Source: Candidatus Dojkabacteria bacterium (GTDB lineage: Bacteria > Patescibacteriota > Dojkabacteria > J137). Taken from it: a stretch of DNA of 64,000 nucleotides. Position numbers and translations under genes: made by a program. The notes beneath the pieces are model-generated. The model saw only the letters and a list, made by a program, of their open reading frames with translations. It was not told the DNA's origin and made no database searches. The DNA lies in contig JBDTVZ010000001.1 of the NCBI GenBank assembly GCA_040006935.1, forward strand, positions 18,218 through 82,217, in the 5' to 3' direction. Shown one piece after another: positions 20,906-62,288 of this stretch; the first letter of the stretch is position 1, and every line of letters begins with the position of its first letter.

Positions 20906-23900
20906 ATGAATAGTGCAATTGCAAAAGCTATCGCAGGACAAGACACTCTTGTTACTCCAGCTAGATTTGATAATAATCAGCAAAAAGACAGAATGAGAAA
21001 TAAAAATGGAGCTGATGGTCGTGGTCTTGTACAAAAGTACGGTATTAATCCTACTGATTTAGCAGCGCTTGAAGCCTATGTTGATGGAAACCTACAACAA
21101 GTACAAATTATAGACCAAGACGCAAATACAATGGAAGCTGATAGATTAAATCAGTCCAGTGGTGGTGAGCAATGGCTTAGAAAACATAAAATTACTAAAT
21201 TTATTGGTAAATTTGGTAAATTTATAGCACCACAAATTGCAGGAATGGGCGTAAGAGCAGCTTTTGGAACAGTAGGTGCAACAGGTGGTCCATTAGTTGC
21301 AGGGGCAATTGGAGGACTTACAGGTGGTTTAAAAGCTGCAGTTGATATTACATTGGCAGGAAGGAATAACACAGACATTGTCGAGTTCTTTGGTAAGAAT
21401 GTAAACGTGGCTGGAGTATTTGAGCAACAGAATAGAGATAAATGGAAAGTAGATAAATTGGCAAGAGGCTGGTTTAATTGGGGAAAAAATTGGGCATTAG
21501 AACCAGTTTATAAATATCAAGAGAGAGAAGATAGGATTTTAAATTTCTTAAGCGATAAAAGGCTAGATTTTTCTAGAGAGGGATATTTCAGAGATCCAAT
21601 GACGGTATTCCCTGTAATGAAGAATCTCCCACTTTCAGATATCCAATTATTTTTGAAAGATTTGTATATACAAGGTACTCTCCTTAGTGCTGTAGGGAGC
21701 AGAAAGGATTTAACACCAGAAGTTAGAAGGATAATCCAAAATTGGATAGACTCATTTTGTGAATTACAACTAATGCTAAATGCTATTTTGTTGAATAGAG
21801 GTTTGCCTTTAACACAAATAGAAGGGATTAGGACTGATGCAACGAAAGAAATAACTTCGTTTAGATCTGCCAAAGGAGAGGCTGCATATGCTCTCAGAAG
21901 AGGCACAACTAATGCAATTCAAAGTGCTGTTTATAATGTAGCATTCCAAACCTTAGTAACAGGTGTTCAAAAATTAGTTACACACTATCAAGGTCTAGTT
22001 ACAATTAATAGAGAGTTAGTTCCAATAAATAACAATGTGGATGCAATGAGGGCAGCTAATCCTCGTTTGGATCAAATAGATCAACAGGTACAGAATTTAC
22101 AGACCCAATTACAACAGACAAACGTAGCTGGTGGGGTTACTAATGTAACCAATCAAGTAGTGCAAAATGTGGCAGGGACTGCAAGAGATAGAGCCCTTTC
22201 ACTCTTTGGTGCAGATTACTTAAATAATGCCGGAATGGGAGAAATGGGAAGGTGGGCAAGAGTTGCAGCAATACAAACTTTTCAAAATCAATATACACCT
22301 CAAGTTGAGAATTTGATTGGAACTTTATCAAGAAACACACACTTAAGCAGAGATGATATCTTAGCCTGGATAATGAATAGAGGGTCTATTGATGGAGCTT
22401 ATCAAGTAGTTGGCGGAGCTTCTATAGTAAATTTAAACGTAACTGATTTACTAACAAGAGCCATAAATGGTCAGTATAATGTTGCATCAATTATTCAAGG
22501 TGCAAATGCAAATGTAGATGCTAGGTGGTTAGATTTAATGAAAAATGGAATGGGACAAATAATTAATCAAGTAACTACTACTAATGTTGCAGGTGCTGGA
22601 TTAACAGATGCTGCACGAGCAAATATTTTTGAGCAAATTGCGAGATTATTAGCTGAGAAAGCTTTAATTGGAGAGAATATTGGGGGAGCTGAATTGCAAA
22701 GAGCAGTAGCTGCTATGGATCCTAACATTTTAAGACAGATATCAGAAGGAAGTGTAAATGTTTTGGATTACTTAATCGATACTGGGTTAATTGTTGCTGG
22801 CGGTGCAATTGGGTTTATAGGTGTTGCAGGTTCTTGGGCAGCAGAAAGTGGGGAATTAGGCACAAGAAGAACTGTTGAAGTTAGAAGAAATATCCCTAAT
22901 CCAAATACTCCTATGCCGCCACCGGTTGGGCCAAATGGTAGACCTTATCCTCAGCCTAACGCGCAACGTGCAGCAGTTTATAATGCAACGCCATATCCAC
23001 AACAAGCTGCGAATCAGCAGCCAGGATTAGCTCCTGTTCCGCAAGGAGGATTAGGTTCAGGTGTTCCAGTTTCAAGCGATGAAACGCTTCATGGTGTCAG
23101 AGCATTGGATGATGCTTCAGCTCAAACAGTCCCATCTGATTTTTTTGCTAACACAAGGCAAAATACCTCCACTCAGCCTATATTAAATAATGCTGTGCCT
23201 CAACAAAATCAACCAGTAGATCAAAATAATCTTGTAGCTAAGATTAATCAAATTATGACTGAGAATTATGACTTGCCTAGAATTATTAATGAGATAATTA
23301 ACAATCCTAGAACAATTACTTTGGACGCTGTTATCCATAACGATAATATATCGAGGCTTTTTGACAAAGCCTTGATCTCGAATTTAGGTATTAAAGAGAA
23401 AGTCTACTATTTAGGAAATGATGGACTAAAAAAAGAAAAAGATATTATGAAATTGATTATTATTAATGACCAATACAATGATATTGTGAAGGATCTAGAC
23501 GCTTGGGGATTAAGTAAAGATCAAATTATCCTTAGACGTATTGTTAATAAACCAGGTGGAGGTGAGGAGGAAGTATTCTACAATATGAAAATAAATAATA
23601 GAAATTATACAATTGAGGAAATAACTGATTCAGGTGTTGAAGTAGGTGGTATTCAATATGGAACACCAAAAGTCACTGACTTAGGCATTGGATTCAATTT
23701 ACTTAGTCAAATAGAAGAAACACAGAAATCTACATCAGTAGGAGAAAATCAAGTAGAAAATAAGGACGAAGATATTATTGCGAGATTTAATATTCCTGAT
23801 TATCCTACTGGAGCTTCTCAGGGTTATCCCGAATCTATAGCAGGAAAAGAAGCAATTATTAATAAAAATTATAAAGAGGAGTATAAATTGCAGCCATATG

Positions 23901-26900
23901 ATGGAGAAGTAGAAAAATATCCACTATTTGATAATGATTACAATGAATTTGACGGAATAATGTTACATAGATTTGAAATTGAAGGTCAAAAATTTGATTT
24001 ATTTATAACTAAAGAAGGTGCAATTTGGTATTTCGATAAAGATAATAATTTTATGAGATTAGAAAATCCTGCAAATGTAGGAGGAACTATTACTTTAGAT
24101 AACGGTGAAGCTTATGAAATAAAATTAGATGCAAATCATAATGTAAGAGTTAAGAAGAACGAAGTTGTTGCAGCACCAGATGTAATTGGTGAGAAGATAA
24201 TTGTAGATGGAGATGAAGTTATCATTAACTCATCAGAAAATTTAAGATTACTTGGCTCTGGAAATAGCTCTATCCCACTTGAATCTTTTGCGATTAAAGA
24301 TGGTAAAGGGAAAATAGAAGAAGACTCAAGGCTATTAGTAATTAATAACCAGAAGTATGTGTTCAGAGATGGGAAAATATATGAAATTAATGGAACAGAG
24401 GTAGTAGAAGATCAAGATGGAACTATCACTATTGAATCATCAAAAGAGCGAGATGTGAAAGTAAAATTATCTAACGGTAAAATAGAAGTATATGAAATTA
24501 TAAAGGGTGATCTTAAATTACCAAAATTGGAAAGAAGAGAATTCCAAGCTAACAGTGTCGAAACGAAGAAACTAAGTTCAGAAGAAAGATTGCAATCACT
24601 AAATGATCAATTAAAAGATAAAAAAATCACTATAGAAAACAAAAATGAGAGTGCAATTACTATTAGTGATTTAGAATTAACACCAGATGAAAAGGCTTTA
24701 CTCCAAGGAAGATTATCTTTGTGGTACGACAGAATTCAAGAAATCAACCCTTTAATCTTAACTGGTCCGTATGATAAAACTTTCAATTTTCAAGAGTATG
24801 GTAATGGTGAAAGTATAGCTGCTGCAATTGTAGAATCTGGTTTTGAAGGAAATAATAATAGTTTAAATCTAGTTGATTTTATAAATAACCCTGACAAATT
24901 GGATATAGCTGATGTAGAAAGAGCTTTGATTAACAAATTTGGATGGAAAGAGGAAAAACAAGCAGAAAATAGAGTGGAAATTATGCTTTATGTTTACCAT
25001 TTAGTTCATGCTGTGGAAGGTGCATTAGGTGGATATTTCGGAGTATATAATCAATTAGAGGCTCTTGATGGTAAAGATATAAAAATTGATATTCAAAATG
25101 ATTCTGGGGCAAATGCTATTCGTTTTGTAGGTAAAGATAATATTAAAGAATTAACACCAGAGAACAAGGCCTTCATTGGCGGTAGAATTACTAAATTATT
25201 TGATATTTCTAGGAAGTTGAATCCTGATATTAGCCCTGAAGACCATCAAACACTTCACTATGACTTTTCAAATGATGGTAATAGGATGCTTAATGCTATT
25301 AGAAAAATTGTTTCTAAAGAGAACGCGGGACCAATATCCTTGTTTAATCTATTAAATGAGATCGAGATTATTGATTTCGGAGAATTATTCCCAACGTTGT
25401 TTATGGAGGGTTGGAAAGACGACAACATGAATGATAATAGAGCAGCAGTTGGTTTAATGCTTTGGCATTTAGCAAATGCAATTGAGGGACAGCTAAGTGA
25501 TAATGAAGTAAAGGGCGAAGACAAAATTTTGGATGTTGACACTGAAATAAAAAAAGACAAGGAATTTGTTGTCAGATTAATCTCTAGCATAAAAGATGTC
25601 ACACCTAAATCTACCTCTGAAGAACGGCTATTCCCGATGGTATTTGAAGCGATTGGCTATAATACTGGAAATAGAGATAACCCAGATTTGCTTGTAACAG
25701 CAATTATTATGGATTCTATTGAGCATTATGCACTTCCAGGATTAGTAAATAGAATAATAGACTTAATGGATATTGATGATGTCGATAGAGAATCCGTGCG
25801 ATTAGGAATTTATACATTTATAGAGGAAAAATTATTAACTAACGATATTGCTGTAGTTCATAAGGACGATGCAAAGACTGCTTTAATTGGACTTGAATCC
25901 AGGAAAACTCTAGAGACACTAGATATTGCTTTAAGTGTCGAAGAAATAAGTAAATTAAATAAAGAAAGTAATGAAGATGAACAAACTAATAATTTAGAAG
26001 TTAACAAGTTCCCGGAGAGTATGGAACTAAACAAGGCATATGAAACTTTAATTCAATGGGATAGAAATCCTTTAAAAGTTGAAATCCCAGTAACTAATGA
26101 GCAAGGGGTAAGTTTTCAGATAAGTTTTAACCATAAAGAATTAGTACCAGCACTTAATGCAGAAGGTCGAATAATGCATAGGGAATTTAACGTTAAGAAC
26201 TCCCAAAATGTTAAGGATTATCCTACTGAGTCTGGGGAATACACGTTGATTTATTCTTTTAGTAAGGTTAAAACATCGGGAGAGGGGATTGAAAGTTTAT
26301 TAATAGAGTATAAAGTTTTAAAGAAAGAAACTCCCGATTCTAAAAATATAGATAAAGTTAAGCTACTAAGAACGATTGAAGAAAAAGAGAAAAACTTAGG
26401 AGAATTACAAGAACAATTACAATCTAATCTAATAAGTAGAGAACTTTATAATGTCAAGAGGAGAGATTTAATGTTTAAAGTAGGAAATGATTGGTTATTA
26501 GTGGGGTTAAAACGATGGCATCTTCATCATCCTGAAAAAGCAGGTACCAAGGACGAATGGGAAATAATTAACCCATACCAAAGGTATCAATTAGAGAGGC
26601 CTATTATTAAAACTAAAGATATTAATGAACCAGACTTTCTTGCCAGCCTAAGTGAGGGTAATGATCAGGTAATCAGAAATCTAGATGCTGAGAAAATAAT
26701 TGGAGAACTTAAGCCAGGAAGACAGTTTGAATCGGATGATAATATCTTTACAGTTATAGAGATTACCCCAAACGGAGTATTTAGAACAAAAAGGCAATCA
26801 AGGAAAGGGGGAATAGAAGTATCTCTAAATTTTGCAAGAGAAAATCTATTGGAATATTTTACAGAAGGAAGGTTGAGAACTATTGAAAATATTAATGTAA

Positions 26901-27463
26901 ACGAAAATAAAAAGAAAGTAGATGAAATTGTTATCTCATTAGAAAAAAATAAAGAACTAATTGAAAGATTAACTATCAATGACAGATTCAGAAGAAAAAC
27001 CACAAATACTACTTACACAATCGAAGATAATGATGGTGATAGTTTGGTAGTAATAGAAAGCACTGCTCGAACAGAAACTCCTATGTTTTTAAGAAAAAGC
27101 ATTTTGCTTGAATGGTTGCTTAACGATGATGTGGAGATGTTAGAGCCAGAAGATAATTCTGAATATGAAAAAACTGTTGAAAACTTAAAGAAAGGGGATG
27201 AATTTACCTACAACGGAAACAAGTACGTGGTTTTACCTAGTATCTCAGGTTATCGTGGGATAGTTGGCGGTAACATAGATAAGCGAAGCGATGTGAAGAG
27301 ATTTCCATCTGGGACCTTTATGAGATTTTTAAAGGAAGGAGTAGTTAAGATTGAAAGTACGAATGAAGAGATAACGCAACAAGTTGCAAAAGGAGTAAAG
27401 GAAGCTCAGAGAAGTCCAACAGCTATTCTAAAGGAAATAGCAGATACTTATGAAGATTTATAA
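20906..27463 (+). CDS. giant protein (2185 aa): Gly/Ala-rich hydrophobic N-terminal region, Pro/Gln-rich linker, long K/E/N-rich C-terminal region
   Basis: Uninterrupted 6.56 kb ORF. Glycine-zipper-like hydrophobic segments (GMGVRAAFGTVGATGGPLVAGAIGGLTGGL; LIVAGGAIGFIGVAGSWAAES). A proline-rich low-complexity segment sits at ~22890-23230 and is locally GC-rich. No recognised catalytic motif. Confidence 0.8.
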   Translation: MNSAIAKAIAGQDTLVTPARFDNNQQKDRMRNKNGADGRGLVQKYGINPTDLAALEAYVDGNLQQVQIIDQDANTMEADRLNQSSGGEQWLRKHKITKFIGKFGKFIAPQIAGMGVRAAFGTVGATGGPLVAGAIGGLTGGLKAAVDITLAGRNNTDIVEFFGKNVNVAGVFEQQNRDKWKVDKLARGWFNWGKNWALEPVYKYQEREDRILNFLSDKRLDFSREGYFRDPMTVFPVMKNLPLSDIQLFLKDLYIQGTLLSAVGSRKDLTPEVRRIIQNWIDSFCELQLMLNAILLNRGLPLTQIEGIRTDATKEITSFRSAKGEAAYALRRGTTNAIQSAVYNVAFQTLVTGVQKLVTHYQGLVTINRELVPINNNVDAMRAANPRLDQIDQQVQNLQTQLQQTNVAGGVTNVTNQVVQNVAGTARDRALSLFGADYLNNAGMGEMGRWARVAAIQTFQNQYTPQVENLIGTLSRNTHLSRDDILAWIMNRGSIDGAYQVVGGASIVNLNVTDLLTRAINGQYNVASIIQGANANVDARWLDLMKNGMGQIINQVTTTNVAGAGLTDAARANIFEQIARLLAEKALIGENIGGAELQRAVAAMDPNILRQISEGSVNVLDYLIDTGLIVAGGAIGFIGVAGSWAAESGELGTRRTVEVRRNIPNPNTPMPPPVGPNGRPYPQPNAQRAAVYNATPYPQQAANQQPGLAPVPQGGLGSGVPVSSDETLHGVRALDDASAQTVPSDFFANTRQNTSTQPILNNAVPQQNQPVDQNNLVAKINQIMTENYDLPRIINEIINNPRTITLDAVIHNDNISRLFDKALISNLGIKEKVYYLGNDGLKKEKDIMKLIIINDQYNDIVKDLDAWGLSKDQIILRRIVNKPGGGEEEVFYNMKINNRNYTIEEITDSGVEVGGIQYGTPKVTDLGIGFNLLSQIEETQKSTSVGENQVENKDEDIIARFNIPDYPTGASQGYPESIAGKEAIINKNYKEEYKLQPYDGEVEKYPLFDNDYNEFDGIMLHRFEIEGQKFDLFITKEGAIWYFDKDNNFMRLENPANVGGTITLDNGEAYEIKLDANHNVRVKKNEVVAAPDVIGEKIIVDGDEVIINSSENLRLLGSGNSSIPLESFAIKDGKGKIEEDSRLLVINNQKYVFRDGKIYEINGTEVVEDQDGTITIESSKERDVKVKLSNGKIEVYEIIKGDLKLPKLERREFQANSVETKKLSSEERLQSLNDQLKDKKITIENKNESAITISDLELTPDEKALLQGRLSLWYDRIQEINPLILTGPYDKTFNFQEYGNGESIAAAIVESGFEGNNNSLNLVDFINNPDKLDIADVERALINKFGWKEEKQAENRVEIMLYVYHLVHAVEGALGGYFGVYNQLEALDGKDIKIDIQNDSGANAIRFVGKDNIKELTPENKAFIGGRITKLFDISRKLNPDISPEDHQTLHYDFSNDGNRMLNAIRKIVSKENAGPISLFNLLNEIEIIDFGELFPTLFMEGWKDDNMNDNRAAVGLMLWHLANAIEGQLSDNEVKGEDKILDVDTEIKKDKEFVVRLISSIKDVTPKSTSEERLFPMVFEAIGYNTGNRDNPDLLVTAIIMDSIEHYALPGLVNRIIDLMDIDDVDRESVRLGIYTFIEEKLLTNDIAVVHKDDAKTALIGLESRKTLETLDIALSVEEISKLNKESNEDEQTNNLEVNKFPESMELNKAYETLIQWDRNPLKVEIPVTNEQGVSFQISFNHKELVPALNAEGRIMHREFNVKNSQNVKDYPTESGEYTLIYSFSKVKTSGEGIESLLIEYKVLKKETPDSKNIDKVKLLRTIEEKEKNLGELQEQLQSNLISRELYNVKRRDLMFKVGNDWLLVGLKRWHLHHPEKAGTKDEWEIINPYQRYQLERPIIKTKDINEPDFLASLSEGNDQVIRNLDAEKIIGELKPGRQFESDDNIFTVIEITPNGVFRTKRQSRKGGIEVSLNFARENLLEYFTEGRLRTIENINVNENKKKVDEIVISLEKNKELIERLTINDRFRRKTTNTTYTIEDNDGDSLVVIESTARTETPMFLRKSILLEWLLNDDVEMLEPEDNSEYEKTVENLKKGDEFTYNGNKYVVLPSISGYRGIVGGNIDKRSDVKRFPSGTFMRFLKEGVVKIESTNEEITQQVAKGVKEAQRSPTAILKEIADTYEDL

Positions 27464-27465
27464 CT

Positions 27466-28485
27466 ATGGATCAACCACCTCAAGATTTGGTCAAAAAAAA
27501 GGGGAAAGTACTAGCTAGCCTTAACTTGTATCCAGAGCTTCTAAATCATCCTGATATGCAGGAGGATCGGCTAGCTACATTGAACCAAATTGGAGAAACT
27601 CTTTTAGGTTTGTTTCAAAAATTATTTAGTAACCCTGAGTACTACGGCGATGTATTTTTCATTGGTGGAATAGAAAAATGGCTTTCCGATTTAGAGAATA
27701 TTGAGATATTTGAAGCAGTAGTTCAACAACTTCGAACACTGGAGGAGATAGGGTCTGATCAAGCAGAATGGCATATTAGAAACTTTTTAAATAATGTAGC
27801 AAAAAGAGTTAAAAGTAATGGAGGTCAGTTATCACTACAAACAAATGATAAGTTAGGAATTACGGAAGCCGAAGCTGTTTTTAAGCAAATGGATAAAATT
27901 AGTGCAGAAAGAATTCATATCCCTGAGAATTTAAATATTTTATTGGACCAAAGATTTATAATTTCTGCACGCGAACTAGAAATAGATATGCAAAAGGTTT
28001 TAGCGCGTCCAAAAGTTACAGAAGTATCCTTTTTAGATCAGCCTAGAGCAGATTTCCAAAAAGAGATTGAGATGTACGATAATGATAGCGAAATTGATGG
28101 AGTTCTTTTGTTTATTCTTTCCAACTTAACAGGAGATGCTATGCAATATGTTATCAATCAAATGGTAAATAAATTAAAAAGAACTACTCAAACAGTTGTG
28201 GCAGTTCTTGAAAGGTATAGAACTTCGTTTGAAAGCAGAGTTTTGAGAGGAGAACAAATCTCGGTCTATGGATCGCCAATACGAGATTATGAATTAATTA
28301 TAAATGAAATACTTGATCTTATTAAAGAACAAGAGAAAAAGAATGGAGAGTATTTATTCGGTGCAGTAGATCTACTTAGAACCAAATCACCAGACGGGTT
28401 TGTAGGTATAACTAAAATGTCACAAATACTATTAACCACACATAGAGCAAGGTATAAAAGTAAAATTATAGCCTTACTAAAATAA
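27466..28485 (+). CDS. hypothetical soluble protein
   Basis: 339 aa; begins 3 nt after the giant ORF stop, so probably co-transcribed. Confidence 0.7.
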   Translation: MDQPPQDLVKKKGKVLASLNLYPELLNHPDMQEDRLATLNQIGETLLGLFQKLFSNPEYYGDVFFIGGIEKWLSDLENIEIFEAVVQQLRTLEEIGSDQAEWHIRNFLNNVAKRVKSNGGQLSLQTNDKLGITEAEAVFKQMDKISAERIHIPENLNILLDQRFIISARELEIDMQKVLARPKVTEVSFLDQPRADFQKEIEMYDNDSEIDGVLLFILSNLTGDAMQYVINQMVNKLKRTTQTVVAVLERYRTSFESRVLRGEQISVYGSPIRDYELIINEILDLIKEQEKKNGEYLFGAVDLLRTKSPDGFVGITKMSQILLTTHRARYKSKIIALLK

Positions 28486-28505
28486 ATCTCTTCTATAGTT
28501 CTAAA

Positions 28506-31500
28506 ATGCAGTACGATGAGATTAAACAAACACAAAATAATAATCTTACCGAAATTCAAAGAGAACGTGAATTAAAAGCTGCACAACTTCGAGCACAAAA
28601 TGCTTCTACAATTTTAAACAAAAAAATTAATCGGTCTTCATTTTCTAATTCTGCTAAAGAAGTTAAACCATTTGATTATCTTGAACGGCTAGAATGTTCC
28701 ATGACATTAGATAGAGTTGATTCAGAAAGAAATGGTACTAATATCAATACTCAAATTATAAATTGTGATTACTCTACAGAAATAGATTCTAAAGGTAGAG
28801 AAATAATTAAAATGACAGTGCCCCATCGGCTGGATTTTTTAGCACTAAATTTAAACCCAGGATCAGTTTTTATTTTTGATAGGTCTAACTATAGATTGCT
28901 ATCTATAGAACAAAAAGATCAGCAGAAAGTAGTAAATTCTGTTGAAGTTTGGCCTCATGTTGAAATACTATCTATAGATAAAATACTTTTCACATTCTCA
29001 GATTTACTTAATAAAGAGAAAATCGTAGCCTTTGAAAGTTTAGAAAATAATGTAATGCGTCTCAAAAAAGGTCCTTTTGATGGCTTCCCAAATAAAATTT
29101 ATTTCCAAAAATATAACCTTGAGAACCCAATATTTATTGAAGACTATGATGAAATTAAAAAAGCCTACCATGCTCCTGGGCAAGGGTCTTTTATTGATGT
29201 TGATTATAATATGGCTATTAAAGCGTTTAACCAAGCATCGAACATATTAGAAACCGAAGACAGAACTGCTGATTTTCAATACCCAGAAGTATTAAGATTA
29301 TTTTCTAAATTAAAAATAGCATTTGCTAAAGATTTAATTCCTAATGAAAATCCTCATGACACTGTTTTTGAATTGAGATTAAGAAACGAATTAAATATTG
29401 ATGGTGTACATATTTACGCAGGGGCAGTAATGAAAATTGATGTGAATGATCCAGAATTTTTTACAATAAAGTATCCTCCTCAAAATGGTGTCCAGATTGA
29501 GTTTATAGAAATAAATGGCACAAAATTATATGCACCAGGGGAAATTTTGTGTAGAAATACCTCCGAAGATCTCCAAATAACCTCAATAAATGGTGGCCAA
29601 CTCGAGAATATGGGAAGCGAAAGAGTTATTAAAATTATAAAAGCAAATAATGGATTTATTGGCTTGGTAGCAAATGATGAAGTAATTAAATTCACGAAAG
29701 ATCATAAAGTTTTAACTTTACTAAGTAATGTGGACCCATCAGTACAAATACTAATAAGTGATATTATGAAAAATAGATACTTTTTACATGATATTTACTC
29801 TGATAATTACCTAGAAGGGGCAATTGAACTTGTAAGTAATCACACAGGTTCTCTTGCTACAATAATATTTGAAGATGAACAACCTGGGAATATAATTATT
29901 CCAAACTATCCAAACATTCATCCATCGTTACACGGTCTTGCAATAGGCCAATTTGACAGATTAATTTTAGATAAAAAAGGTGAATTTGCAATCTTTGGCG
30001 TTGCTACTGAAAGATACGATATGCATTTTCGTGGAGTATGGTACGAAAGAATAGAACGAATTTTTATAAATTTTCGAACTGGAGAGGTTAGGTTTAGGTG
30101 TGATAGCTATTTTGAAGGTGGCAAAAGATACGGTCAAACTAAGTACAGTGAGAATACTTATATTATTGTCGATAATTTAGGCCTTAAACAAACAGGAGAT
30201 GGTATATTTTCTGAAGTCGAAAACAATGTGCCAAAGGGAGATGATTATAAGGACCACATTTCAAGGACGCTTAAAATTAAAGAAATAAGAATAGGAGATA
30301 TGAGACAGTTAAATGAAGATAGGATTGATATAACTGCATCATTTGACTCAATAGTATTAAATAACCAAGAAAACCCCACATTACATAACTGGATATACGC
30401 ACAGGCTCCATTTGGAAGTATTGTTAACTTTAATAGTAAAAATTCTATAATTGAAAGCATTGAAGTACCCTACGATACCTATATAAAATCTGGTGGGATA
30501 CGCGCATCACTAGGATCTAGCTTTAAAATAAGTGGTATAAGAAAAGTTTTATTTGAGGAAGATTCTCAGAATTTTCCATTAGATGTAAAGGAATTAAAAG
30601 GTGAAATTACTATTACATTAAATAATAAAATTTATAGGGCAAAAGATATTAGTGTTAATAGTTTAGGTTTAAAATTGGACAAATTCCCTTTAATTACTTG
30701 GGAGGTTATTTACAATGGTGCTACAGAATTACCTGATGAGTTATTAGTGGAAAATAATAGTGTAAATATACCAACAAAGAACGAAATTCTTTATCTTGCA
30801 AATCGATTAACTGTGCAGGTTAATAATAGGAAACCTGAAGATGACTTTGATCTAGAACAAAATGTAAATAGTTTAATCGGGCTAACAAGATGGCTATATG
30901 AATCTGCAAATAAATTAGGTGGCCCATTCAATCTAGCGGAATGGGTTACAATCTATAAACCATTACTTTATTATTACTATAACGACCCTGAGGCAGTAAT
31001 ATTGCTAATAATGGGCTTTATACCTAATTCAAACGGTAATATAGATCCAATAGATTACATGTTTCTTTATGCAACATACCTTGAGATTTTTAAACAAAGA
31101 TATCCGGAGGTAGAAAGTGAATTAATTTTACTATTGAGTAGTTTAAACCCCGATCTTAAATTTATATATAAGAATGAAATTAAAGATATTATAAGTAATT
31201 TTGAAATACTCGAAGATGAGAATAAGCAACATTTCCTAGACGAGTTAGATAGCATAAATATGGATACGCCTAGTCATATCCCAGTCCCAGTAAGTCACTC
31301 TCAAGTAGAAGGCTTCAAAGCAGACCAATTCTCAATAGAAAAAGGTTTTCTCAAATTTAATGAAGAACCTAAAGCAATCGATCTTTTACAAAGAATAGGT
31401 AACCTTCGAGAACTTTCAACTAGCTCTGAGCTTGACAAGCAAATAGAAATAATTAAAGAAAACGGTTCGAGAATTGATATGAATGTTGTTGGTCAGATTT

Positions 31501-33941
31501 CTCAAATCCTTGAAACAATAATAGGCTTTAAGATCGAAGGTTTAGATCTAGCTAAGAACTTTGTTGTATTTGGAATGATAATAAACTTTGCAAATAACTT
31601 ACGCGAATTAAAGAACAAAAGGTCTAAAGACTCTCAAGAAGAAATAAATATTGCTATAACTGAACTGCAGAATAAAATAAATAGAATTAAATCTGGCGAA
31701 TTAACAGAAGAAGAAATGCAATTTGAAATGTCTAATGAAAATGTATTGAAGATTTTAATGCACATGACCTCCGGAACTTTACCCAAAGAATATCTAGTAT
31801 TTACAATATTGATGTTGATTACTTCTGGTGTTGAAATTGCTGGAGTTAGAAACGTTTTAAAACTTGATCAAATTATAAAAAACCAAAGAGGAGATGATAT
31901 TGGAGTTCCGTATTTAAAGTATAGAGAGGAAATACTTGAAGTAAAAGCCACAGGAAATGTGATGGCACTACAAGAAGTTATTATAAAAAACGTAAGCATG
32001 TTAATCAACTACATGAGAAATTTTCATAATTACGAGGATTACTCCGAAGATTTTTTAGTAATGTGTAAATTATTGAACCTTAAAGAAGGTGAGTTCTCTA
32101 CCAACTGTTTTGGTATAGGGCTAATTTATCAAGCCATACTTGACTTAATGATTGGTGATATTTGTGAGATTAATTATGCAACTCTCCATCACGAATTAGG
32201 TAATGATATTGAAGACTGGTTTAAAAATCTGGGTGAAATAGTTATGGCGGGTCATGCTGTATTCATTATTAAACTTCCACTTATAGATGGAGAGGAAAAT
32301 AAATATATCATTGGAGATCCACTAAGTGTGATTAACAGCTTAGCTCAAAAAAATAAAAGAAAACCTTTAGACAAACATCATAATTGCATGGTTGTAAAGG
32401 AGTCCGAACTTATGCTAGACAATGAGATTAATTCTGTTCTTGAAAATACAAAATTCGTTACTATAGATCCTAATAAAAAAATCCGAATAGTTCAGAAAGA
32501 TAATAAAGAAATACAAATGAAGATAGATCCTAATGATGTTTATCAAGTATATAAAGACAGGAATTCTATTTTAACCTATGCAATGATTAGTTCCTTCAGA
32601 GATTTAAATGGCTACTTAACAACCATAGCGCCAGATGAAGGTGAAGTATTAATGGATATGATTACAGATTCAAAATATAAAGGAGATAGAAACAAAGCAT
32701 TTGAGAAGTATATGCTTTTATATAATAGATATTCAGGATTTGAATATAGATCTACAAACTCTAATCAAGTAATAGCATCGAATATAATATTATTAAATTT
32801 TGCTCTTGAAAATGATTATTATATTGAAGCTTTGTTCCTGGCCAATGTAAATAAAATAAAATTAGCCAAACTATATCCAGACAAAGACGACTACGATGAA
32901 TCTTTAATTTTCGATACGCAAAAAGCATTTATACTTACAAAAATAGCCAATCTCGATGAGACAGAAATCCTAAAATTAATTGAAGATAAAAAATATCTTT
33001 TAAGAAAAGAAGATATTACACTTATCTGGGAAAATGTCTCCTTTATAAATTTAACATTGCGTTTATTTAATGAAACAAAAGAGGATCAAAAAAGAACTCT
33101 AAAATTACTATCTTCTGAGTCACTTTACTATTTGATTTTTGATCCACTAAGATACAATAATATCCAGGAAATGAAAGACTTATGTAAAGAGATATTAAAA
33201 GTTGCTTTGGAAAATGATTATTTACCATATTCAGCTTATATTATAGAAAAACTAGTTAAGTTAAGTCCCGAAGACGAAACTCTGAAATTAGTAGAAGATA
33301 AGATTATAAAATTCATTGCTAAAACCGATAACTATATAATACTTACACAACTAAATCCACATTTAATTTTCTCAAAATTTATAGACAAAATTCATAAAGT
33401 TTTAGAAGTTAGTTTTGAGATACCAACTATCCAATCAATTTTAAACATATTGAATGGAGTGAAGGATGATAAAGTTATTGATGATCAATACGAAAGTCTT
33501 CACAAAGTATTAAGTAGTAATCACACTGCACTTGATAGAGCTGCTTATCGACATAAAGTTGAAGAAGAAAAAAGAATAGTTGCAGCTGTAGAGGCAAACA
33601 CTCATAGAATTGAGGAGATAAATAATCAAGTAAAAACTGAAGTGAGGTCAGGAGGGCAATCCTACCAATCCCTGCATCAAGAAGAAAAACCCCTTGAACT
33701 TGGAGACAACTATATAAAAATAACTGAAGAGGCTGTTTTCGGATCGATTGATCTACTCGTGAGTAAATATGGTGAACTCTCAGGAGACATAATGGCTCTA
33801 TTTCTTCGAGGAGCTGATGAAACAGTAATTCGTCTAGCAGAGAATAATTTGAGGAAGAAAGGAATATTACTTCCATCACCCGAAAATGCAGCTAAAAGGT
33901 TACAAGGACAAAATCTCCCATTGTTACAATCGAATTCTTAA
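28506..33941 (+). CDS. giant protein (1811 aa), no hydrophobic segments recognised
   Basis: Uninterrupted 5.4 kb ORF; its stop overlaps the stop of the convergent VirB4-like gene by 4 nt. Confidence 0.8.
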   Translation: MQYDEIKQTQNNNLTEIQRERELKAAQLRAQNASTILNKKINRSSFSNSAKEVKPFDYLERLECSMTLDRVDSERNGTNINTQIINCDYSTEIDSKGREIIKMTVPHRLDFLALNLNPGSVFIFDRSNYRLLSIEQKDQQKVVNSVEVWPHVEILSIDKILFTFSDLLNKEKIVAFESLENNVMRLKKGPFDGFPNKIYFQKYNLENPIFIEDYDEIKKAYHAPGQGSFIDVDYNMAIKAFNQASNILETEDRTADFQYPEVLRLFSKLKIAFAKDLIPNENPHDTVFELRLRNELNIDGVHIYAGAVMKIDVNDPEFFTIKYPPQNGVQIEFIEINGTKLYAPGEILCRNTSEDLQITSINGGQLENMGSERVIKIIKANNGFIGLVANDEVIKFTKDHKVLTLLSNVDPSVQILISDIMKNRYFLHDIYSDNYLEGAIELVSNHTGSLATIIFEDEQPGNIIIPNYPNIHPSLHGLAIGQFDRLILDKKGEFAIFGVATERYDMHFRGVWYERIERIFINFRTGEVRFRCDSYFEGGKRYGQTKYSENTYIIVDNLGLKQTGDGIFSEVENNVPKGDDYKDHISRTLKIKEIRIGDMRQLNEDRIDITASFDSIVLNNQENPTLHNWIYAQAPFGSIVNFNSKNSIIESIEVPYDTYIKSGGIRASLGSSFKISGIRKVLFEEDSQNFPLDVKELKGEITITLNNKIYRAKDISVNSLGLKLDKFPLITWEVIYNGATELPDELLVENNSVNIPTKNEILYLANRLTVQVNNRKPEDDFDLEQNVNSLIGLTRWLYESANKLGGPFNLAEWVTIYKPLLYYYYNDPEAVILLIMGFIPNSNGNIDPIDYMFLYATYLEIFKQRYPEVESELILLLSSLNPDLKFIYKNEIKDIISNFEILEDENKQHFLDELDSINMDTPSHIPVPVSHSQVEGFKADQFSIEKGFLKFNEEPKAIDLLQRIGNLRELSTSSELDKQIEIIKENGSRIDMNVVGQISQILETIIGFKIEGLDLAKNFVVFGMIINFANNLRELKNKRSKDSQEEINIAITELQNKINRIKSGELTEEEMQFEMSNENVLKILMHMTSGTLPKEYLVFTILMLITSGVEIAGVRNVLKLDQIIKNQRGDDIGVPYLKYREEILEVKATGNVMALQEVIIKNVSMLINYMRNFHNYEDYSEDFLVMCKLLNLKEGEFSTNCFGIGLIYQAILDLMIGDICEINYATLHHELGNDIEDWFKNLGEIVMAGHAVFIIKLPLIDGEENKYIIGDPLSVINSLAQKNKRKPLDKHHNCMVVKESELMLDNEINSVLENTKFVTIDPNKKIRIVQKDNKEIQMKIDPNDVYQVYKDRNSILTYAMISSFRDLNGYLTTIAPDEGEVLMDMITDSKYKGDRNKAFEKYMLLYNRYSGFEYRSTNSNQVIASNIILLNFALENDYYIEALFLANVNKIKLAKLYPDKDDYDESLIFDTQKAFILTKIANLDETEILKLIEDKKYLLRKEDITLIWENVSFINLTLRLFNETKEDQKRTLKLLSSESLYYLIFDPLRYNNIQEMKDLCKEILKVALENDYLPYSAYIIEKLVKLSPEDETLKLVEDKIIKFIAKTDNYIILTQLNPHLIFSKFIDKIHKVLEVSFEIPTIQSILNILNGVKDDKVIDDQYESLHKVLSSNHTALDRAAYRHKVEEEKRIVAAVEANTHRIEEINNQVKTEVRSGGQSYQSLHQEEKPLELGDNYIKITEEAVFGSIDLLVSKYGELSGDIMALFLRGADETVIRLAENNLRKKGILLPSPENAAKRLQGQNLPLLQSNS

Positions 33942-35911
33942 ACTTGCGGTGGAACAGCTGAAACTTCTGTAGTAACAGGTTGTTCAATAGGCTGTGCTTG
34001 AGGAGTTACATTATCTGTTGGTAGAACTGTTCCTGGTTGTTCTAATGGTGGAGCCGAAGAAATATCTAACTGATCTCCTTCTTCATTTTCTACTTTCTGT
34101 TGAAGTAACTCATTAGGGTTTGTAGTTATCAAATTATGCTCATTTTGACTTGCAACAATTTGTATAGCAACATGATTAGCCCCAGCAAAAAATAATCCTT
34201 GTCCAATTCCTGCAGACATTAAAAAAGACTTTTCACCATCTGTAAGATAGAATACTTTCTTTAATTTATCTATCGCAGCTGGTGCTTGCTTCAATAATAT
34301 CTGCATGGATGAGTTATTAATTATTGCTTTACCATAATCTGAAGCTAAGAAGTCATCAACATCTTGTGTAATAGTTGTTAGACCTAATGCATATTTTCTA
34401 GCTCTCTTAGCAATTGAGTATACAAACTTGGCAGCATCTTCGTATTGCATCATAATCCAAGCTTCATCAATTATTAATAATCTTTTCCTCTTATCTCTTT
34501 TAATCTTGGTCCAAATGTAATCAAGCATTACATACATGGCCATTGGTCTTAAATCATCAGCTAAATCACGAATTGAAAATACTGTAAATGTATTGTGAAT
34601 GTTAACCGTGGATTTCCTATCAAACACACCAGATGCGGAACCTTTTAAATATTTTTCTAATCTACGAGCCATTGAATGGGATTCATCTTCCGACATTGCA
34701 TTTAAAATCTTATACAAATCTTCTAACAAAGGAGCTTCGTTTGAATGTGTTGATGGATCGGGTGTGATACCTTTTTCTTTGTACGTTAATATTAAAGCTC
34801 TATCTAAAATTGCTGCTTCCTCTGCAGTTACTGTTCCACCCAACATCATTCTAATTAATCCAGAGAGAGTTAAAATTTTAAATCGGAGTTCATCTTCATC
34901 AGCGTTAAATATCCCAGATAATTCAAAGGGATTCAATTTCTGAGCACCGTCTTGCGAGAATGATATATATTCTCCACCAACTGCATCACATAATCTATCA
35001 AATTCTTTTTCTGGGTCTATAATAATAATGTCAATTCCAAGCATTAAGGACCTCACAGCTTCCAATTTAACTGCATAGGATTTACCAGCTCCGGATGTAG
35101 CCAAAACGACTGAGTTAGCATTAGGAAGTGAAAATCTATCGAAAATAACTAAAGAATTATTATGAAGATTAACCCCATATAAAACTCCTTTATCCATTGT
35201 TAACTCACTACTGACGAATGGGAAAGTTGTAGCAATGGCAGTAGTATCCAAGTTTCTGGTCATATTTATTTTATCAAGACCATATGGAATTGTGCTTTGG
35301 AAACATTCTTCTTGTTGAAGTGTAGCAACTTTAATAATAATTCCAATCGTTGCCATTGTGCTCTCCAGATTCTTTGAAATTTTATCTAACTCTTCCATAG
35401 TATCTGCATGCAATGTTACGTACAAGGCATATTGGAAGAATTTTTCGTTCCCAGCGGCAAGCTGTTCTTGCAAAGTTAATGCATCTTTAAGTTGTACTGC
35501 AACAATAGGATCTCCTTGTCTACCTGCTTCAATTTCAATATTTATTGTTGCCTGAAACTCTGCAATTTTTCTTTTTAAGATTTTTAATATTTCACCAGTT
35601 TCAAAAGGATAATAATAAGTGCTGATGTCTACGGGATATTCAAAGTTAATTAATGGTTCTAACCAACTAGGAGAAACAACACTAGGAAAGCCGATAGCAA
35701 AATATGATCTAAAATACTTATTCCCTATTATTAAATTACTGAAGTTAACCTCAATGGCACTTGGTGCAATAATGTCTTTAACATCAATTAATCCTTGAGC
35801 AAATTTCTGAATAGATTGGTTCTCTCGAGCCAAAGCAGCAGCTTCTTGAGGGTTTATAGGTTTTGTACCTTTTTTAGGTTTTGCGTCTGGTATTAATCCG
35901 AATAAAGCCAT
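33938..35911 (-). CDS. VirB4/TrbE/CagE-like type IV secretion ATPase (C-terminal 657 aa)
   Basis: Walker A LATSGAGKSYAV, Walker B LLIIDEAW; the overall VirB4-family arrangement; a C-terminal ~60 aa Pro/Gln-rich tail. Confidence 0.85.
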   Translation of the reverse strand: MALFGLIPDAKPKKGTKPINPQEAAALARENQSIQKFAQGLIDVKDIIAPSAIEVNFSNLIIGNKYFRSYFAIGFPSVVSPSWLEPLINFEYPVDISTYYYPFETGEILKILKRKIAEFQATINIEIEAGRQGDPIVAVQLKDALTLQEQLAAGNEKFFQYALYVTLHADTMEELDKISKNLESTMATIGIIIKVATLQQEECFQSTIPYGLDKINMTRNLDTTAIATTFPFVSSELTMDKGVLYGVNLHNNSLVIFDRFSLPNANSVVLATSGAGKSYAVKLEAVRSLMLGIDIIIIDPEKEFDRLCDAVGGEYISFSQDGAQKLNPFELSGIFNADEDELRFKILTLSGLIRMMLGGTVTAEEAAILDRALILTYKEKGITPDPSTHSNEAPLLEDLYKILNAMSEDESHSMARRLEKYLKGSASGVFDRKSTVNIHNTFTVFSIRDLADDLRPMAMYVMLDYIWTKIKRDKRKRLLIIDEAWIMMQYEDAAKFVYSIAKRARKYALGLTTITQDVDDFLASDYGKAIINNSSMQILLKQAPAAIDKLKKVFYLTDGEKSFLMSAGIGQGLFFAGANHVAIQIVASQNEHNLITTNPNELLQQKVENEEGDQLDISSAPPLEQPGTVLPTDNVTPQAQPIEQPVTTEVSAVPPQV

Positions 35912-35926
35912 ATTTTTAATTCTTAA

Positions 35927-36622
35927 TTAGCTGGATCTAACAATTCCAGTAGAAACATCAGAATCTCTAAGATTAAGTATCTCAAGACCCAATTTATCTG
36001 GTTCGTACACAGAGTAATATAGTTTTATTAATTCATCATTTGTTAATTGTTTTGCTGCTACACCCATATTCTGATATTGTTTAATTATCGAATCCCTTTT
36101 TGGATATAACTCCTCTTTAGCCTTTTCTACAATTCTTGTTACATGGGCAATTCTTTCAGGTGTTCCAAAAGTTTCTTTAAACCAGTTATTTTTTATAACA
36201 GGTAAATTTAAACTTGGAATCACAGTATAAAATCTTTTATCTAGAATCTGAGTTGTTTGTGTTAGGTTATTTATGAAGTCCTGGTACAAAGAAACCTGTT
36301 CTGTTACAGCAGTCGAAGTAATTTTCGATTTATAACTTTCTAGAAGTTTTAAATAATTTGCAATGTCAGTTCTTTGAGTTTTAATTACAATTTGTACTGG
36401 GAAATTTGTAGCATTTAAAAATGCAGCAAAAGATCCGATTTTAGCATCTTGTTCCGGTCCATCAAGTAAATCAAAATTAAGCGAAGTAGTTTCTATCACA
36501 ATAGACACTTTTCCACTTTTCAGTACAACCATATCATCTTTAATATCTGCGATATCTAAATGCTCCTGCGTGCTAATTCTTTTTGGATCGAAAATACCCA
36601 TAATACAATTAAAAGTTCTCAA
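35927..36622 (-). CDS. VirB4-like N-terminal domain encoded as a separate 231-aa ORF
   Basis: MVVLKSGKVSIVIETTSLNFDLLDGPEQDA resembles the N-terminal region of Gram-positive VirB4 homologs (TcpF/PrgJ type); it is in the same frame as the downstream ATPase ORF and separated from it only by TAA plus 5 codons. Confidence 0.6.
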   Translation of the reverse strand: MRTFNCIMGIFDPKRISTQEHLDIADIKDDMVVLKSGKVSIVIETTSLNFDLLDGPEQDAKIGSFAAFLNATNFPVQIVIKTQRTDIANYLKLLESYKSKITSTAVTEQVSLYQDFINNLTQTTQILDKRFYTVIPSLNLPVIKNNWFKETFGTPERIAHVTRIVEKAKEELYPKRDSIIKQYQNMGVAAKQLTNDELIKLYYSVYEPDKLGLEILNLRDSDVSTGIVRSS

Positions 36623-36834
36623 TTAAAAATTAAAAGATTTCTCCTTCAACTATAACAGTATATAGTAAATAGCTGAAAGGATACAATAGGAAATTATTAA
36701 GGACCTATAGCATTAGTCAATAGAAGTTAATCAAAGAATCTAAAAATTTGGGACTGGTTATTTGCCATTGGTTATTATAAGGGTATAATCCTTTAAGCAT
36801 ACCTGATGGCGCAGGTTATTTTTTTAATTTTTAA

Positions 36835-37383: not shown

Positions 37384-37392
37384 AACTATTAT

Positions 37393-37462
37393 GGACCGCC
37401 GAACTATTGCGCGAGAATTGGCGGTATGACCTCACCCTAACCCTCTCCTTGAAAGGAGAGGG
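37393..37462 (-). repeat. GC-rich two-hairpin intergenic repeat, copy A (reverse orientation)
   Basis: GGACCGCC-loop-GGCGGTATGACCTCACCC-TAA-CCCTCTCC-TTGAAA-GGAGAGGG; the same stems recur at 46885-46956 and 62216-62288. Confidence 0.8.
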
Positions 37463-37743
37463 AATTGGTCCCTCTTGTAATGACAAGTGCACCTGAGATT
37501 CATAAGGTACACAGATTTACCCTGTCGAAGGCATGGTCTGCGCCCCTGTTATTCGTATGGGGTCCAGCCACCTGCCTGACTGCGCACACAGGCACGGTGA
37601 CTGGACCTTCATTAAGTGCCAAGTTAAAGAGTGTTGTAACATCATGCAGTAATAAACTGCCACGATCAAAAGATGAGGTGGTAAGGTCAACATAAAACTA
37701 AAGCTAATAAATTCGCTAAGATTTATAGCAGTATAGCAATAAC

Positions 37744-46837: not shown

Positions 46838-46884
46838 GTTTCTCCCCTTCATAAGGGGAGATGGCGAAGCCGAGGGGTTTGGCT

Positions 46885-46956
46885 CCCTCTCCTTTTAAGG
46901 AGAGGGTTGGGGTGAGGTCATACCGCCGCAAAACCACGTACTAGTTAGGGCGGTCC
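46885..46956 (+). repeat. GC-rich two-hairpin intergenic repeat, copy B, preceded by an extra hairpin at 46841-46861
   Basis: CCCTCTCC-TTTTAA-GGAGAGGG-TTG-GGGTGAGGTCATACCGCC-loop-GGGCGGTCC; an upstream TCTCCCCTT-CATAA-GGGGAGA hairpin. Confidence 0.8.
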
Positions 46957-46975
46957 AAATTAATATACAACAAAT

Positions 46976-62134: not shown

Positions 62135-62215
62135 ATACCAATTATATCACAAAACGAAGTGTTTTACGAGGCATCAGGATTGTGGATCATGCTAAGAGTG
62201 ATGTGAGAAGAAGTT

Positions 62216-62288
62216 CCCTCTCCTTTCAAGGAGAGGGCTAGGGTGAGGTCATACCGCCCCAAAACCATGACATACATCTGGGCGGTCC
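62216..62288 (+). repeat. GC-rich two-hairpin intergenic repeat, copy C
   Basis: CCCTCTCC-TTTCAA-GGAGAGGG-CTA-GGGTGAGGTCATACCGCC-loop-GGGCGGTCC; hairpin 2 is identical to copy A. Confidence 0.8.

Follow-up and report, generated by a model that had tools for sequence, protein, structure and literature searches.

The 64,000-nt stretch of a Candidatus Dojkabacteria genome analysed here (assembly GCA_040006935.1, contig JBDTVZ010000001.1, positions 18,218 to 82,217; hereafter the window) carries on its minus strand a small open reading frame (ORF) that ends in a TAA codon closely upstream, and in the frame, of an ORF for a VirB4-type ATPase. An initial annotation had taken this for a VirB4 gene interrupted by an in-frame stop. 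The analysis described here indicates, with a probability of roughly 93%, that the stop is the normal boundary of two bona fide adjacent genes of a type IV secretion system (T4SS), trsD and virB4 (trsE), as found in Patescibacteria. By the sequence comparisons the boundary is ancient and universal in the lineage, and the common frame of the two genes in the window is an accident without function. The arrangement as such has already been described.

On the minus strand the small ORF closes with the codons GGA ATT GTT AGA TCC AGC (GIVRSS) and the stop TAA at 35929-35927. This is followed by TTA AGA ATT AAA AAT, which translates as LRIKN and contains no further in-frame stop, and by ATG GCT, of which the ATG (35911-35909) opens the 657-aa ORF (33938-35911, minus strand) in the frame of the small ORF. 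The succession of an in-frame TAA and a same-frame ATG given in the initial annotation was borne out by the sequence and the ORF reading, and its distance of 18 nt from stop to start holds if the stop codon is included, the true spacer being 15 nt. Similarly, its 231 aa for the small ORF are counted from a TTG at 36622, where the mechanical ORF opens, and the real gene likely starts at the ATG at 36601 and encodes 224 aa. The latter start agrees with the public annotation of an identical protein (P0001, 224 aa, 100% identity), and the public annotation of the source genome calls two genes at the boundary. The features concerned are:

35927 to 36601, minus strand: trsD-like gene, 224 aa (NCBIfam, PF26593 in homologues, alignment with the fused VirB4 P0225, hhalign, Foldseek)
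35912 to 35926, minus strand: AT-rich intergenic spacer, 15 nt, TTAAGAATTAAAAAT (sequence)
33938 to 35911, minus strand: virB4/trsE-like ATPase gene, 657 aa (NCBIfam, Pfam, PDB, alignment with TrsE of pGO1)
36693 to 36720, minus strand: promoter-like site with 10 of 12 matches (TTGACT-16-AATAAT), preceding the trsD start by about 90 nt

The boundary was compared among relatives by fetching 80 loci from species-representative genomes, including those of Dojkabacteria, WWE3, Curtiss-, Beckwith-, Shapiro- and Woykebacteria, among others; both parts were readable in 78 of them. In all 78 the small gene has its own stop codon (TAA, TAG or TGA) and is succeeded by the ATPase gene, down to approximately 36% identity and mostly in different frames. 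In 15 loci the start overlaps the stop as ATGA (-4 nt); 11 others have a stop-to-start distance of -1 nt and 38 one of 0 to 25 nt, which places 64 of the 78 within -4 to +25 nt. The two genes share a frame in only 10 of these relatives, the other 68 being out of frame or overlapping, at a chance expectation for an in-frame spacer of 1/3. The frame is common in the window because its 15-nt spacer happens to be a multiple of three, and the nearest relatives, L001 (87/93% identity) and L002 (86/90%), have out-of-frame spacers of 14 and 16 nt, TrsD C-termini that differ from that of the window and, for L002, a TAG stop. An interrupted VirB4 gene, whether through a fresh nonsense mutation, a sequencing error or a conserved readthrough device, is incompatible with separate genes in every readable relative and with a frame and a spacer length that vary freely.

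The same picture was obtained from the proteins. A hypothetical protein from a metagenome-assembled genome of Candidatus Dojkabacteria matches the small ORF at 100% identity, and relatives of the ORF occur in Dojkabacteria and other Patescibacteria (candidate phyla radiation, CPR). Its 120 closest homologues all stand alone (212-257 aa, 58-100% identity). With a threshold of E <= 0.001, a profile-free exhaustive search yielded 1,454 homologues. Of a further 150 cluster representatives, the best of this search, P0225 alone carries the ATPase as a fusion; the remainder stand alone, many with long P/Q/T/S-rich tails. Moreover, the pairing of trsD with the ATPase gene is also encountered in Bacillales plasmids (Planococcus, Pontibacillus). 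Of the readings that the initial annotation had offered, a natural two-polypeptide VirB4 is therefore the one that is upheld (78/78 relatives with two genes, 120/120 homologues stand-alone), and the alignment with homologues that it had proposed as a check, when run, returned relatives with consistently two genes and the same boundary, i.e., a normal split architecture.

According to its profile matches and motifs, the 657-aa ORF is a VirB4-type ATPase. With the NCBIfam model conju_CD1110 (VirB4-like conjugal transfer ATPase, NF045971) it reaches 395.5 bits (cut-off 325, E 4.8e-118), and it matches Pfam P-loop_TraG (E 3e-28) as well as, in the PDB, the C-terminal domain of a VirB4-like protein (4ag5, E 1.7e-45) and TrwK (E 1e-6). 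Walker A (SGAGKS in ATSGAGKSY) and Walker B (LLIIDEAW in RLLIIDEAW) motifs are present, and the ORF comprises what remains of the N-terminal domain, followed by the P-loop ATPase domain and, at the C-terminus, a tail rich in P and Q. The match to conju_CD1110 covers only profile positions 176-735 of 752; about the first 175 positions are missing, which means that the polypeptide lacks a complete N-terminal domain, the first part of which is found as the separate TrsD-like ORF. VirB4 identity across Dojkabacteria amounts to 65-93%. At the N-terminus of these proteins a variable basic leader of 30-60 residues precedes the conserved motif DVKDIIAPSAIEV, and the C-terminal tail of TrsD differs in length and sequence among homologues; given these variable tails and leaders, both ends look like genuine protein termini.

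The product of the small ORF appears to be TrsD-like and to represent, as a remote homologue, the first part of the VirB4 N-terminal domain. It matches the NCBIfam model VirB4_plasma, built for the full-length VirB4 of Mycoplasma integrative and conjugative elements (ICE), at profile positions 110-279 of 894 (E 9e-10), and the TrsD/TraD model (NF041427) at positions 17-198 of 201 (E 2.5e-6). In a Foldseek search of the TrsD model against the PDB, TrwK/VirB4 chains were the top matches. The resemblance to the VirB4 N-terminal domain that had initially been ascribed to the 231-aa product is confirmed by the VirB4_plasma match, the Foldseek result and the alignment with P0225, and the window contains a stand-alone protein in the range of ~200-230 aa directly upstream of a VirB4-like ATPase. 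A sequence search of the PDB with the TrsD profile gave no matches even at E <= 10, and no transmembrane segments were found in the 224-aa ORF. Precomputed annotation assigns the Pfam family PF26593 (PF26593.2, TraC-like) to the identical P0001 as well as to each of the 120 close homologues, whereas a local hmmscan of the ORF against Pfam-A returned noise only and did not list PF26593 even at E <= 1, a mismatch that is probably due to a difference in library version, the model perhaps being absent from or different in the local copy. The TrsD alignment has a mean column identity of 63-65% and more than 40 invariant columns.

Two further observations concern the ends of these proteins. Long low-complexity C-terminal tails rich in P, Q, T, S and N occur in P0139, P0195, P0214 and approximately 40 other TrsD homologues, which reach 715 aa and belong to lineages such as Curtissbacteria and Beckwithbacteria (loci L045, L051, L071, L075 and L076). 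In addition, TrsD and VirB4 tend to start alike, following M-[GA]-[IL]-[FL]-[DGS] (e.g., MGIFD, MALFG/MGLFD), both in the window (36601 and 35911) and in L005, L014-L018 and L020. The common MG[IL]F starts, together with a faint 'LDV.DI' resemblance, prompted the idea that TrsD and the first 265 residues of the ATPase are internal duplicates, which was rejected as hhalign shows no relation between them (probability 0.1%).

Placed on one VirB4 profile, the two ORFs are adjacent without overlap, TrsD occupying positions 110-279 and the ATPase positions 281-893. They are also colinear with the one-piece P0225, in which TrsD aligns to residues 9-199 (36% identity) and the ATPase to residues 213-774. 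P0225 is a genuine TrsD-VirB4 fusion of 787 aa that was found in two independent assemblies (L083 4001-6364; L084 877-3240), where its neighbours are PrgI (VirB3-like) and an M23 peptidase and where it adjoins dnaN. Its presence establishes that split and fused forms coexist among the relatives.

Alternatively, the small protein might act on its own as an accessory factor (e.g., a regulator or chaperone) that shares no more than its ancestry with the VirB4 N-terminus and does not complete the motor. This is improbable in view of the exact contiguity of the two ORFs on one VirB4 profile, the absence from the ATPase ORF of about the first 175 profile positions of its own family, and the existence of a fused orthologue (P0225). 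Furthermore, the tight adjacency and frequent overlap of the two genes (ATGA, TAATG) suggest coupled synthesis at matched amounts.

Another reading put forward initially is readthrough of the TAA; programmed or leaky, it would generate a minor fused TrsD-VirB4 isoform of ~886 aa beside the separate proteins. It is compatible with a stop and a start in one frame and with a spacer that holds no second in-frame stop, and the naturally fused form works in some lineages. Nevertheless, it has very little probability, since the frame is shared in so few of the relatives, the two closest being among the 68 that are out of frame or overlapping, and since a readthrough-promoting structure or motif was looked for and none was found. 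Moreover, the TAA is followed by a T, a combination that constitutes an efficient bacterial termination signal, and TAA is the standard stop here: it closes 28 of the 32 long ORFs of the window (TAG 2, TGA 2) and must therefore be regarded as the ordinary stop of the genome. A selected function for readthrough is, on the same comparative grounds, very unlikely. It is just as doubtful that rare readthrough in the window genome yields a little fused TrsD-VirB4, which would make it a living intermediate between the split and the fused (P0225-like) forms.

A recent nonsense mutation that split a one-piece VirB4, with the secretion system on its way to pseudogenisation, is refuted by the comparative data. 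The stop and the downstream ATG share a frame, and one-piece relatives do exist (P0225, in its two assemblies, and the family profile of the Mycoplasma ICE VirB4); against this stand the boundary in all 78 relatives, mostly with other frames, and the strong conservation of both genes. In addition, P0225 lacks the ~24-aa TrsD tail and the ~47-aa VirB4 leader, and a single base change can therefore not interconvert the split and the fused forms. A false stop created by a sequencing or assembly error can be dismissed with equal confidence: the exact protein sequence comes from a single contig (P0001), but L001, L002 and proteins P0002-P0005 from independent assemblies of other samples (81-90% identical, 224-226 aa) end at the same point, and the public annotation likewise has two genes.

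Three points weigh against the interpretation as two regular genes. The base calls at 35927-35929 derive from one assembly, albeit that proteins with 81-90% identity elsewhere end alike. The TrsD/TraD model NF041427 gives only 27.5 bits, far under its curated cut-off of 200, and by the NCBI equivalence threshold the small ORF falls outside the membership of this family, as a remote homologue. Finally, the physical association of TrsD with VirB4 is a matter that we infer.

As two regular genes, trsD and virB4 would be co-transcribed, with the promoter lying upstream of trsD. Translation would terminate at the TAA, and the ATG 15 nt downstream would be used through re-initiation independent of a Shine-Dalgarno (SD) motif or by a new ribosome, as would be the case for nearly all genes here. 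TrsD and the ATPase could then assemble non-covalently into a VirB4-like motor, TrsD completing the N-terminal domain and providing the surface that, in a one-piece VirB4 such as TrwK of R388, faces the membrane components. In the R388 machine the N-terminal domain of TrwK faces the inner-membrane components (TrwK structures 7o41/8rtb).

The window has a G+C content of ~32%. The 15-nt spacer contains no SD motif before the downstream ATG, where the initial annotation had proposed to look for a ribosome-binding site; this result is uninformative because SD motifs are nearly absent here, an SD-like core preceding only 3 of the 32 long ORFs in the window. A minus-strand scan detected no terminator-like hairpin between trsD and virB4. 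The promoter-like site at 36693-36720 may possibly serve as the promoter of a predicted trsD-virB4 operon, the evidence being weak: the region contains 18 promoter-like sites, which is not above the expectation of 14.7 +/- 3.5 from shuffled sequence.

The trsD-virB4 pair is isolated in the window, with a divergent HD-domain gene upstream and three large ORFs that lack any family match converging on it downstream. Its neighbours between 14.8 and 50.7 kb include genes for the HD-domain protein, a ribosome hibernation factor-like protein, a methyltransferase, ZIP and Fur, besides the three unmatched large ORFs, and the flanking genes are common only to the closest relatives. Scans of this interval with Pfam and NCBIfam recognised no PrgI/VirB3, VirB6, VirB2-like or cell-wall hydrolase gene near virB4, although divergent ones could escape such scans, and the Pfam and NCBIfam scans recognised no coupling-protein or relaxase gene in the window.

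The three large ORFs (2,185, 339 and 1,811 aa) lie consecutively on the plus strand (20906-33941); neither Pfam nor NCBIfam gave a match to them, and each contains at most two hydrophobic segments. The last of them runs towards virB4, with a 4-nt overlap at the virB4 stop, and no sequence similar to these ORFs was found downstream of virB4 in the related loci.

On the other side of the pair, a segment of approximately 310 nt (37390-37700) has a G+C content of 49% in this 32% G+C genome and no convincing ORF. Its folding exceeds that of shuffled sequences (z -4.0 on the plus strand, -5.2 on the minus strand), and it has no Rfam match at the gathering score (noise at E ~0.2 only), no tRNA and no tmRNA. 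The segment is absent from the same intergenic position in the closest relatives, where the gap is ~120 nt as compared with 407 nt in the window, and may represent either a structured RNA not yet described or an inserted element. A small dispersed intergenic repeat (37392-37464, 46884-46957 and 62214-62258) has three copies of 84-98% identity, two of which are inverted. It contains a perfect GC-rich hairpin, CCCTCTCC-TTGAAA-GGAGAGGG, and may be an element similar to a repetitive extragenic palindrome (REP) or a miniature inverted-repeat transposable element (MITE), or a terminator-like element.

The window provides one more ordinary example of a trsD-virB4 pair. For annotation this calls for caution, as a short in-frame gap between TrsD and VirB4 in Patescibacteria or Bacillota should be taken neither for a pseudogene nor for a readthrough site or an error. 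The interest of the pair is real and already recognised: few large machines are conserved in these reduced epibiotic bacteria, the T4SS being one of them, and TrsD is its most widespread accessory component.

A survey of Patescibacteria reported 2,272 TrsD homologues, of which 1,664 adjoin virB4, and identified TrsD as the most abundant T4SS component found in these bacteria (PMC12102498, Microb Genom 2025). In the same study TrsD is listed as essential in Ca. Southlakia epibionticum ML1, and VirB3 and VirB6 are often non-adjacent or, in some classes, unrecognisable. The main text of Guglielmini et al. 2014 (PMC4027160) makes no mention of TrsD by name. As in the published Patescibacteria pairs (PMC12102498), TrsD in the window lies immediately upstream of a chromosomal, MPF-FATA-related virB4. 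A TrsD homologue adjoining virB4, as in the T4SS cluster of Patescibacteria, is found here in a genome of Dojkabacteria and is kept in 78 Patescibacteria genomes. There is no substantial difference from the published pairs (PMC12102498), the 15-nt in-frame spacer being peculiar to the window genome and the window lacking a recognised PrgI/VirB3, VirB6 or VirB2-like gene beside the pair.

The Staphylococcus aureus plasmid pGO1, whose TrsD and TrsE correspond to TraD and TraE of pSK41 and are the prototype of one MPF-FATA subclass, has the same organisation: TrsD of 227 aa, a gap of 14 nt and TrsE of 672 aa, compared with 224 aa, 15 nt and 657 aa in the window. TrsE aligns with the window ATPase from end to end (residues 22-594 versus 11-626, 25% identity) and has the same N-terminal boundary, and TrsD of pGO1 aligns with the 68-sequence TrsD profile over nearly its whole length by hhalign (probability 71%, E 3.7e-5, 178 columns, 5-200 versus 28-216, 22% identity); both identities are low. 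The conjugative plasmid pGO1 carries a relaxase, a coupling protein and other trs genes in one operon, whereas the pair in the window stands alone in the chromosome amid housekeeping genes.

Finally, the window ORFs share their domain content and order with the one-piece VirB4 proteins, i.e., P0225 of a CPR relative, the Mbov_0397 family of the Mycoplasma ICE (NF045975), with the profile of which the two ORFs are jointly colinear, and TrwK of R388 (PDB 7o41/7o42). The one-piece proteins join these parts covalently and the window has them as separate proteins: what is a link of 13 residues in P0225 is in the window a 24-aa tail, a stop codon, the spacer and a 47-aa leader.

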